A DNA stretch of 4,666 nucleotides. Source: a virus (taxonomy: Duplodnaviria; Heunggongvirae; Uroviricota; Caudoviricetes). Every line of letters begins with the position of its first letter. Positions within the stretch are counted from its first letter, which is position 1. The position numbers and the translations under genes were made by a program. A model generated the notes under the pieces. That model made no database searches. It was given only the letters and a program-made list of their open reading frames with translations, and was not told the DNA's origin. Shown piece after piece: positions 704-1,038 of the stretch. The stretch lies in IMG/VR virus record IMGVR_UViG_2534682252_000033; one strand, given 5' to 3'.

Positions 704-704
704 A

Positions 705-818
705 TCACCACCAACGGATTGCCCAGACCAGAACAGCAATGGCCACAATACGAATGGCAAAAGCTGCCGCTCTTGTTAAATCCAGACTGGCTGGCGTCTC
801 CACTTCAATGCCTTTCAT
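705..818 (-). CDS. Hypothetical 37-aa membrane peptide (MKGIEVETPASLDLTRAAAFAIRIVAIAVLVWAIRWW), translationally coupled to Rz
   Basis: Hand-translated ORF with a GAGG Shine-Dalgarno about 9 nt upstream of the ATG at 818..816. One predicted transmembrane helix. Its TGA stop (707..705) is 1 nt from the Rz ATG (703), and its terminal TGGTGG codons supply the GGTGG upstream of Rz. Small size keeps confidence low. Confidence 0.25.
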   Translation of the reverse strand: MKGIEVETPASLDLTRAAAFAIRIVAIAVLVWAIRWW

Positions 819-916
819 AATGGACAACCTCAGAAAGAATCTTTTATACTTCCTCACAGGGAAAGTACCTCCCTACCCATAATTTCTCCCTTGCCTTACT
901 CAAGGTCAGAAAACAC

Positions 917-950
917 AAAACCCCGCTTGCTGCCAACAAACGGGGTTTTT
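917..950. terminator. Bidirectional intrinsic-terminator-like hairpin between endolysin and Rz
   Basis: AAAA-CCCCGcTTG-ctgccaa-CAAaCGGGG-TTTTT: a GC-rich stem (5 bp plus 3 bp across one mismatch) flanked by an A-run at 917..920 and a T-run at 946..950, so each strand sees a stem followed by a U-tract (minus strand: ...CGGGGUUUUGUGUUUU). Confidence 0.5.
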
Positions 951-1038
951 ACTTTTATTCACTTAGGTTTTACCAGTTTTCAGGATTTCGTGTTATCCAC
1001 CCGCGTTGGCCAACGTCATTTTTCAGGAAAATATTCTG

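Follow-up and report, generated by a model that had tools for sequence, protein, structure and literature searches.

The lysis of Gram-negative hosts by phages is usually described in terms of a holin, an endolysin and a spanin. The present analysis concerns the DNA between the genes of the last two in a stretch of 4,666 nucleotides (nt), called the window below, from the Caudoviricetes virus record IMGVR_UViG_2534682252_000033. In this late region of a lambdoid prophage, with all the lysis genes on the minus strand, a gap of 335 nt separates the stop codon of the endolysin gene R from the ATG of the spanin gene Rz. The gap holds a terminator-like hairpin, a small open reading frame (ORF) with a hydrophobic helix and a junction at which the stop codon of the ORF and the start codon of Rz are one nt apart. 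The minus strand is referred to as the sense strand, and the positions are those of the window.

Parts of this arrangement resemble several described systems. The dual-start holin/antiholin genes (lambda S105/S107 and phage 21 S68/S71) also encode small membrane proteins in the lysis cassette of a late operon, and have two in-frame starts, each with a Shine-Dalgarno (SD) sequence, of which the upstream one yields a longer form with additional N-terminal positive charge. However, the small protein has no relation to the Pfam holin families, as no Pfam or NCBIfam match was obtained at E≤1, and one marginal transmembrane helix is found in it compared with two or three in the holins. Its N-terminal extension consists of 13 residues with a charge of +5 instead of 2-3 residues, and the use of both starts is predicted. 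Moreover, the small gene is located after the endolysin gene and not before it, in a cassette which already has an S21-type holin. The second likeness is to lambda tR' and to the terminators at the boundaries of morons (Juhala et al. 2000, cited in PMC4104026), which share with the hairpin a GC-rich stem, U-tracts, a transcript read through with the aid of Q and a position at a mosaic boundary. In contrast to these, the hairpin precedes its gene, has no accompanying sense promoter and is consistently bidirectional.

Termination-reinitiation gene pairs (PMC6728339) resemble the junction in that a distance of 1 nt separates the stop from the start and the upstream ORF contains an SD-like sequence near its end. 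Here, the upstream ORF is 37-50 codons long and its last three codons, Trp-Trp-stop, form the SD. The type I toxin-antitoxin and antisense systems (hok/sok, symE/symR; P22 sar/ant) share a small hydrophobic peptide and possibly a predicted antisense RNA that covers the SD and the start and ends at the terminator hairpin. The difference is that the peptide gene lies inside an operon without a promoter of its own, which a type I toxin gene has, and the predicted antisense RNA is not among the Hfq-bound RNAs of strain Sakai. The releasin gp25 of phage Mu (PMC9239132) is likewise a small membrane protein encoded beside the endolysin and spanin genes and outside the holin-endolysin-spanin triad. 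It is not homologous to the small protein, and the module described here accompanies both signal-anchor-release (SAR) type and soluble endolysins (GH24, M15, GH108), which makes a role in SAR release unlikely. The small protein does not have the features of a spanin either, which are an N-terminal transmembrane domain and a long periplasmic coiled coil in i-spanins and a lipobox in o- and u-spanins: its chain stops after the hydrophobic helix (RWW-stop), a lipobox Cys is lacking, and Rz and Rz1 are separate genes downstream.

The favoured reading, to which a probability of roughly 65% is given, is that the spacer is a portable module of the lysis operon composed of the terminator hairpin, a small gene of the family PHROG 4493 and the stop-1 nt-start junction. 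The features named by an earlier sequence-only reading of the window (the hairpin, the ATG at 818, the GAGG, the hydrophobic helix and the stop 1 nt before Rz) were all present. The peptide, which was proposed there as possibly new, had already been catalogued as ECs_1094 in Sakai, as the hypothetical protein WP_000675931.1 in RefSeq and as PHROG 4493, a family labelled 'unknown function'. What is new here is the corrected start, the evidence of selection and the conserved Trp-Trp-stop junction, together with the slot for small ORFs and the finding that the hairpin is conserved as a structure; the sequence itself was known. The practical gain is a better start annotation (GTG, 50 amino acids, aa) and a defined module. 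Many lambdoid phages, including Shiga-toxin (Stx) and O157 prophages, keep selected small membrane-protein genes between the endolysin and the spanin, and the carrier prophages occur in a large share of Escherichia coli genomes. If these proteins act in lysis, they would provide an extra control point over lysis timing and hence over the release of toxin and phage. If they have no such role, the junction would still be a clear natural and portable device for translational coupling with Trp-Trp-stop as the SD.

The small ORF is a genuine gene under purifying selection. The ratio of nonsynonymous to synonymous differences (pN/pS), determined with 19 unique genes of the short type, was 0.24 in the ORF frame compared with 0.97 and 1.92 in the other two frames. 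Conservation at the amino-acid level, the test proposed for the ORF at the outset, was thus borne out. The pN/pS values of the core and of the extension upstream of it were 0.25 and 0.195, respectively. Between the gene type of the window and that of locus L024, a pS of 0.59 and a pN of 0.05 were determined (pN/pS 0.09). The length from the Tyr codon to the stop was exactly 144 nt in 19/19 unique genes, and the other two frames contained stops in all of them. With an exhaustive HMMER search, homologs of 49-67% identity were found, which are likewise about 37 aa long and have (R/K)WW at their C-terminus; an AFAI(R/K) motif is conserved as well. In the homologous loci L013-L015 the whole architecture is kept, that is the hairpin, the leader, the ORF and the stop 1 nt before the next start. 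The small gene is present on more than 1000 contigs of Escherichia, Shigella, Salmonella and Citrobacter, and in plaque-forming phages as well.

A degenerate DNA pattern was derived from the leader of the gene, and the search with it yielded about 120 more viral loci; only L013-L015 and the loci derived by synteny are independent of this pattern. The search of genome contigs with the same pattern resulted in only two genuine matches, both from Sodalis and both disrupted. In these copies (L017 and L018, from a metagenome-assembled genome of Sodalis sp.) the hairpin, the leader and the start of the small ORF are disrupted, and they therefore place the range of the module beyond Escherichia and Salmonella. 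The tblastn search of phages with the 37-aa peptide gave no match, probably due to the low-complexity filter, and the matches obtained with the 50-aa form were limited to its non-hydrophobic half.

The gene was originally placed at the ATG at 818..816, which is preceded 9 nt upstream by a GAGG (831..828) with a predicted SD duplex of -8.6 kcal/mol. The GTG at 857, located 13 in-frame codons further upstream, is the most likely start instead. The mechanical ORF call also starts at this GTG (857..705, 50 aa). Its SD, UAGGGAGGU, is 9 nt away and is the strongest of the region with -12.5 kcal/mol, and a GTG or an ATG is kept at the same position in every lineage. The 50-aa form matched positions 1-54 of the 56 positions of PHROG 4493, a full-length match (E=1.4e-24), whereas the 37-aa form matched positions 14-54 (E=5.5e-16); with phrog_1115 the 50-aa form gave E=2.1e-11. 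Judged from these data, the 50-aa form is probably the main product. The internal Met is invariant, as is the rare AGG codon in the GAGG before it, also in the independently found loci, and the ATG at 818 may be a second start that gives a 37-aa isoform. The leader of the gene is kept in L003, L004 and L033. A mini-ORF in it (880-854, minus strand; MGREVLSL) has an SD of its own and ends with a TGA that overlaps with the GTG of the small gene (GTGA). The mini-ORF, which may feed ribosomes to the GTG, is confined to the lineage of the window (L003, L004 and L033).

The net charge of the extension is +5, and its hydrophobic moment (muH) of 0.84 marks it as strongly amphipathic. The AlphaFold model of the 50-aa form consists of a helix at residues 4-17, a loop and a helix at residues 27-48, with a mean predicted local distance difference test (pLDDT) score of 71. 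The Kyte-Doolittle mean of the hydrophobic segment over 19 residues is 2.10. The predicted 50-aa protein would begin with a basic amphipathic helix, followed by an acidic loop and, at the C-terminus, by a marginally hydrophobic membrane helix ending with RWW.

The hairpin at the upstream end of the module is a conserved structure. The terminator scan gave a stem of 15 pairs at 949..917. The RNA of the lysis strand from 965 to 900 folds with -22.9 kcal/mol (z = -4.2; 0/200 shuffled sequences were as stable), and the plus-strand fold of the hairpin has -15.5 kcal/mol (z = -2.85). In 126/128 related loci, a strong hairpin precedes the Tyr codon by 39-84 nt. Its 31 sequence versions fold with -12 to -32 kcal/mol, and compensatory double changes occur at 5 of the 10 consensus pairs. 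The tails of the hairpin read UUUUGUGUUUUCUG (sense) and UUUUUACUUUUAUU (antisense), and the corresponding U-tracts 3' of the stem are UUUUGUGUUUU and UUUUUACUUUU. U-rich tails on both strands were observed in 34 to 35 of the 37 contexts, and the mean number of U per 12 nt was 8.0 (sense) and 8.7 (antisense). All the sequence features of an intrinsic terminator are present, and the hairpin looks like the bidirectional terminator that it had been taken for. In the whole window 11 terminator-like sites were detected compared with the expected 3.9 +/- 2.1. The rimP-leader model of Rfam, a candidate in the scan of the whole window at E≤1, was rejected: its score of 24.8 bits is below the threshold of 47, and the match is merely the terminator.

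The homology blocks change over precisely at the hairpin. In the Stx phages which carry ant, the homology to the window ends at about 954-945, the 5' edge of the hairpin, and in the phage L003 with an M15 endolysin it begins at 949. The hairpin is thus the 5' boundary of the small-ORF module and a recombination joint. No sense-strand promoter-like site was found between the hairpin and the ORF in the promoter scan of the window; the expression of the ORF and of Rz therefore depends on read-through of the late transcript. An internal terminator had been expected to uncouple Rz and Rz1 from R unless transcription is antiterminated. It is no obstacle to Rz expression, since the late operons of lambdoid phages are transcribed by Q-modified polymerase, which antiterminates and reads through terminators (PMC7547250). 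In L015 and Sakai Sp6, a Q gene precedes the cassette. During lytic growth, the Q-modified RNA polymerase would read through the hairpin. In a lysogen, the hairpin would most likely keep stray unmodified transcription out of the spanin genes and antisense transcription out of R and S, and such two-way insulation is the most economical role for it. A second terminator-like hairpin of the sense strand, with 11 pairs followed by TTTTTGTTTT, is located at 2548-2522, 56 nt upstream of the holin start. Together with the hairpin at 949..917, the lysis strand of the late operon therefore has at least 2 internal terminators.

The plus-strand tail can also be explained by an antisense control similar to that of type I toxin-antitoxin systems. 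According to this explanation, a constitutive plus-strand promoter at 821..850 directs an RNA of about 75-100 nt (about 857..955) which ends at the hairpin. This RNA, complementary to the SD and the GTG of the small gene, would silence leaky synthesis of the peptide and, via the coupling, of the spanin in lysogens, and the conserved plus-strand U-tract would serve to end it. The site TGGACA-18-TATACT is the only strong promoter-like site near the spacer. TnGnCA-18-TATAnT recurs at this place in every lineage, among them the independent L013 (CCGACA/TATAAT) and L014, and the single promoter-like site in the loci with other ORF types (C, B and A') is also antisense and downstream of the hairpin. 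The plus-strand tail is U-rich in 35/37 contexts (mean 8.7/12), and the fold of the predicted RNA consists of an unpaired 5' region followed by the terminator. However, the hexamers lie on conserved codons (Leu-Ser/Thr and Lys/Asn/Gln-Tyr-Lys), and their conservation is possibly a by-product of coding. The promoter spacer of 18 nt is suboptimal, the positions of the promoter-like sites vary between the ORF types, and the number of sites with 9-10/12 matches is near chance (4 compared with 6.0 expected in the window; 0.4-1.1 expected per sub-region).

No Rfam family matches the predicted antisense RNA. Among the 63 candidate small RNAs (sRNAs) of Sakai obtained by Hfq cross-linking and analysis of cDNA (CRAC), none maps to 1184766-1184864, whereas both neighbouring sRNA cassettes are present there. 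Contrary to the classical type I toxins, the peptide mRNA has no promoter of its own. The antisense start was not found among the listed transcription start site entries of the EDL933 supplement, which derive from uninduced cultures and are hence uninformative. Antisense control of this kind is compatible with the module reading and is regarded as a tentative possibility. Two known RNAs were rejected as RNAs of the spacer: the multicopy late-region prophage sRNA HnrS (EcOnc10-12), which in Sp9 maps downstream of Rz, and EcOnc33, which maps to the 3' end of the esterase gene.

Somewhat less probable is the explanation that the hairpin is mainly an element of RNA stability or processing, or a mere recombination joint, and not a working terminator. 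The stem would then shield the message of S and R from 3' exonucleases, resulting in different levels of holin and endolysin compared with the spanin. The location between cistrons of a transcript that has to be read through is consistent with this, as are the exact change of the homology blocks at the hairpin and the maintenance of its structure by compensatory changes. The conserved U-rich tails on both strands are, in contrast, needless for a stabiliser or a joint, and the canonical features of a terminator are complete.

The module reading includes the junction between the small gene and Rz, which is also conserved. In the window a single T (704) separates the TGA (707..705) from the Rz ATG at 703. 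The sequence UGG UGG UGA U provides GGUGGUGAU, which has one mismatch to the ideal GGAGGUGAU and pairs with the 3' end of 16S rRNA with -11.5 kcal/mol. Of the 68 loci in which the small ORF ends with (R/K)WW, 67 have exactly one nt between its stop and the next start codon (TGA T ATG in 50, TGA C ATG in 11, TGA A ATG in 4 and a GTG start in 2), which agrees with the initial view that the ORF is coupled to Rz. In a coupled pair, the stop and the start are expected to overlap or to lie close together and the SD to be part of the upstream ORF, as is the case here. The junction is kept while its partners are swapped. Upstream, ORFs of types A, A-long and C are found, of which the unrelated type C (PHROG 6632) has the same IRWW-TGA-N-ATG ending before Rz. 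Downstream, the gene encodes diverse Rz proteins of PF03245, a 128-aa i-spanin-like protein without a Pfam match or a 60-aa lipoprotein (PHROG 7528). The junction thus appears to be a portable termination-reinitiation device: ribosomes ending the small ORF would reinitiate on Rz, and the synthesis of the spanin would be tied to the translation of the small gene. The WW ending would be, at least partly, a constraint on the nucleotides. It is from the position and the coupling that a role of the small protein in lysis is suggested.

The annotations of the Rz start are in conflict: ECs_1092 of Sakai starts with TTG at 760 (525 nt), whereas the Prokaryotic Genome Annotation Pipeline (PGAP) version starts with ATG at 703 (468 nt). 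The version from 760 overlaps the small ORF. The conserved junction and the N-termini of the Rz family favour the start at 703. The 60-aa lipoprotein has the lipobox LVGC and three Cys in a mature part of 30 aa, and belongs to no Pfam family. It is coupled to the small gene by the TGA-N-ATG junction in L024, L029, L034 and about 25 other IMG/VR loci, as well as in L012 (2901-3098), in phages whose endolysin is of the M15 or the GH108 type. Downstream of the junctions of this type, the sequence examined contained no Rz gene. Possible roles of the lipoprotein are those of an alternative lysis factor of the outer membrane or of an exclusion lipoprotein.

The elements described can be combined into a more elaborate scheme. 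The module would then be a hitherto unrecognised regulator of the final step of lysis in Gram-negative hosts, consisting of a membrane microprotein with two isoforms, the 50-aa form with the +5 N-terminus and the 37-aa form without it. The translation of the microprotein would gate the synthesis of the spanin or the lipoprotein via the WW-stop, and the long form would be silenced in lysogens by a cis-antisense RNA ending at the hairpin. This scheme as a whole is considered doubtful.

It had also been suggested that the ORF is simply a translated leader, so that only the delivery of ribosomes to Rz matters and the peptide has no function. The conserved stop-1 nt-start junction, with an SD made of the last codons, and the same IRWW-TGA-N-ATG end of the unrelated type C ORF would be expected from a leader. 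However, the purifying selection acts along the whole peptide, beyond its 3' end (core pN/pS of 0.25, and 0.09 between the window and L024 types), the length is invariant and the AFAI(R/K) motif is conserved. The longer A' relatives are equally conserved, though the next gene after them is another small ORF and not Rz. Given the selection on the remainder of the peptide, a purely passive leader is excluded, and the explanation is regarded as improbable.

The claim that R and Rz are normally contiguous holds for the prophages DLP12 and Qin of K-12. It does not hold for the lineage of this phage, in which a spacer is the rule. The spacer in part matches 2051/5426 complete E. coli genomes, with a coverage of at least 80% in 668 genomes. 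In Sakai Sp6, Sp9, Sp11 and a Stx1 phage, ant and another small ORF occupy the same gap. In general, one to three small ORFs with a single helix follow the hairpin in varied combinations, or ant is found together with an ORF of type B. These ORFs belong to types A and A' (PHROG 4493/1115/3246), B (PHROG 4906) and C (PHROG 6632). Hundreds to more than 1000 contigs of the same four genera carry them, as do plaque-forming phages, and their public names are only 'hypothetical' or 'putative transmembrane protein'. The gap between R and Rz is therefore a recurrent slot for three families of small membrane ORFs and/or ant, and not the oddity of one locus as which the extra spacer was first described. 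The endolysin gene that precedes the hairpin and the ORF is of four unrelated types (GH24, Peptidase_M15_4, GH108 with PG_binding_3 and an unclassified putative endolysin of 139 aa); the module is thus not tied to one kind of endolysin. The literature searches revealed no account of a small ORF between R and Rz.

Since the gap takes foreign inserts such as ant, the small gene can be thought of as a moron, i.e. a lysogenic-conversion gene for a prophage membrane peptide unrelated to lysis, for example in superinfection exclusion. Small prophage membrane proteins often function in exclusion. In contrast to a moron, the gene has no sense promoter between the hairpin and the ORF, its terminator is located upstream and not downstream, and it is translationally fused to the next lysis gene in 67/68 loci, which makes this explanation very unlikely. 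Although short hydrophobic ORFs are frequent in AT-rich intergenic DNA (PMC11188072), a chance ORF in functionless spacer DNA is already refuted by the frame-specific selection, and the invariant length, the full-length PHROG match and the 49-67% identity in distant loci agree with this.

Several points weigh against the module reading. The hydrophobic helix contains two Arg and is marginal on the Hessa scale (+2.0 compared with -3.5 for the transmembrane domain of Rz), due to which the membrane insertion of the small protein is uncertain. The RWW ending is possibly conserved for its nucleotide role as an SD and not for the protein. The pN/pS values, such as the 0.24 of the ORF frame, are summed over non-independent pairs and uncorrected for multiple hits. 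The conservation of the leader, including the GAGG and the Tyr codon, is partly ascertainment as the search pattern was derived from the leader. The small protein matches no family of Pfam or NCBIfam and belongs to no described holin, spanin or toxin family, and a solved or characterised relative was not found; the type A', B and C relatives also gave no Pfam or NCBIfam match at E≤1. The peptide is absent from the entries of the Sakai ribosome-profiling table of small ORFs, which were obtained with uninduced cultures and are hence uninformative.

Table 1. Features of the window in and around the spacer between R and Rz.
Feature	Position	Strand	Details
Rz (i-spanin)	703..236	-	PF03245, E=8.4e-49; ECs_1092 in Sakai
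Rz1 (o-spanin), embedded in Rz	483..298	-	PF06085, E=1.7e-21
Coupling junction CGT TGG TGG TGA T ATG	701..716	-	Trp-Trp-stop codons form SD-like GGUGGUGAU before Rz ATG
37-aa ORF, core of the small protein	705..818	-	acidic linker and C-terminal hydrophobic helix ending IRWW; TGA 707..705
N-terminal extension, V/M-RKYKRFFLRLSI	819..857	-	starts with GTG 857..855; holds GAGG 831..828
Antisense sigma-70 promoter-like site, TGGACA-18 nt-TATACT	821..850	+	scores 10 of 12; hypothetical
Leader of the small gene	858..916	-	5-bp hairpin 905..889; SD GGGAGG 873..868; 8-codon mini-ORF 880..854
Bidirectional intrinsic-terminator-like hairpin	917..949	both	GC core CCCCG...CGGGG between A-run and T-run
R-proximal part of the spacer	951..1038	-	travels with the R21-type lysozyme gene; homology edge in ant-carrying Stx phages
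Endolysin R, GH24 phage lysozyme, R21-type	1572..1039	-	PF00959, E=7.6e-24; ECs_1096, lysozyme/phage endolysin
Reverse-oriented 104-codon ORF	1690..2004	+	PHROG 1853, unknown function; 90-aa hypothetical ECs_1097 / WP_000138558.1
S21-type holin	2466..2260	-	PF04971; ECs_1100 in Sakai
NanS-p-type sialate O-acetylesterase gene, disrupted	4666..2914	-	two frameshifts

The surrounding genes are listed in Table 1. Positions 1-2787 of the window are 99.4% identical with prophage Sp4 of Sakai (E. coli O157:H7); Sp11 was rejected as the Sakai counterpart of the window. The reverse-oriented ORF between the holin and the endolysin increases the distance between S and R to about 690 nt and is a second insertion in the lysis cassette. 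The frame of the esterase gene, compared with the intact ECs_1088 of Sakai, changes from -1 to -3 near 3830 and from -3 to -2 near 3648. Due to these two frame changes, it represents either a pseudogene or sequencing errors. Sakai Sp4 has its pchA-to-holin segment in inverted orientation with respect to the esterase, with IS629 and ISEc8 at the flanks, and the inversion parts the lysis cassette from the late promoter. The window is collinear at the corresponding place (about 2787-2791, compared with L147), and its order of esterase and lysis cassette is presumably the ancestral arrangement.

Two short cassettes antisense to the late genes were detected between the sialate esterase and the holin, at 2640-2770 and 2815-2910 of the plus strand. 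Both consist of a TTGACA box and a terminator of the form CCUUUU-AGCCAGC...GCUGGCU-U7, and no Rfam model matches them. By coordinates, they map to the Hfq-bound candidate sRNAs EcOnc35 (1186583-1186656, plus strand) and EcOnc52 (1181998-1182075, minus strand) of Sakai Sp4 (Tree et al. 2014). The cassettes are located where the sRNAs PasA, PasC and PasD are reported.

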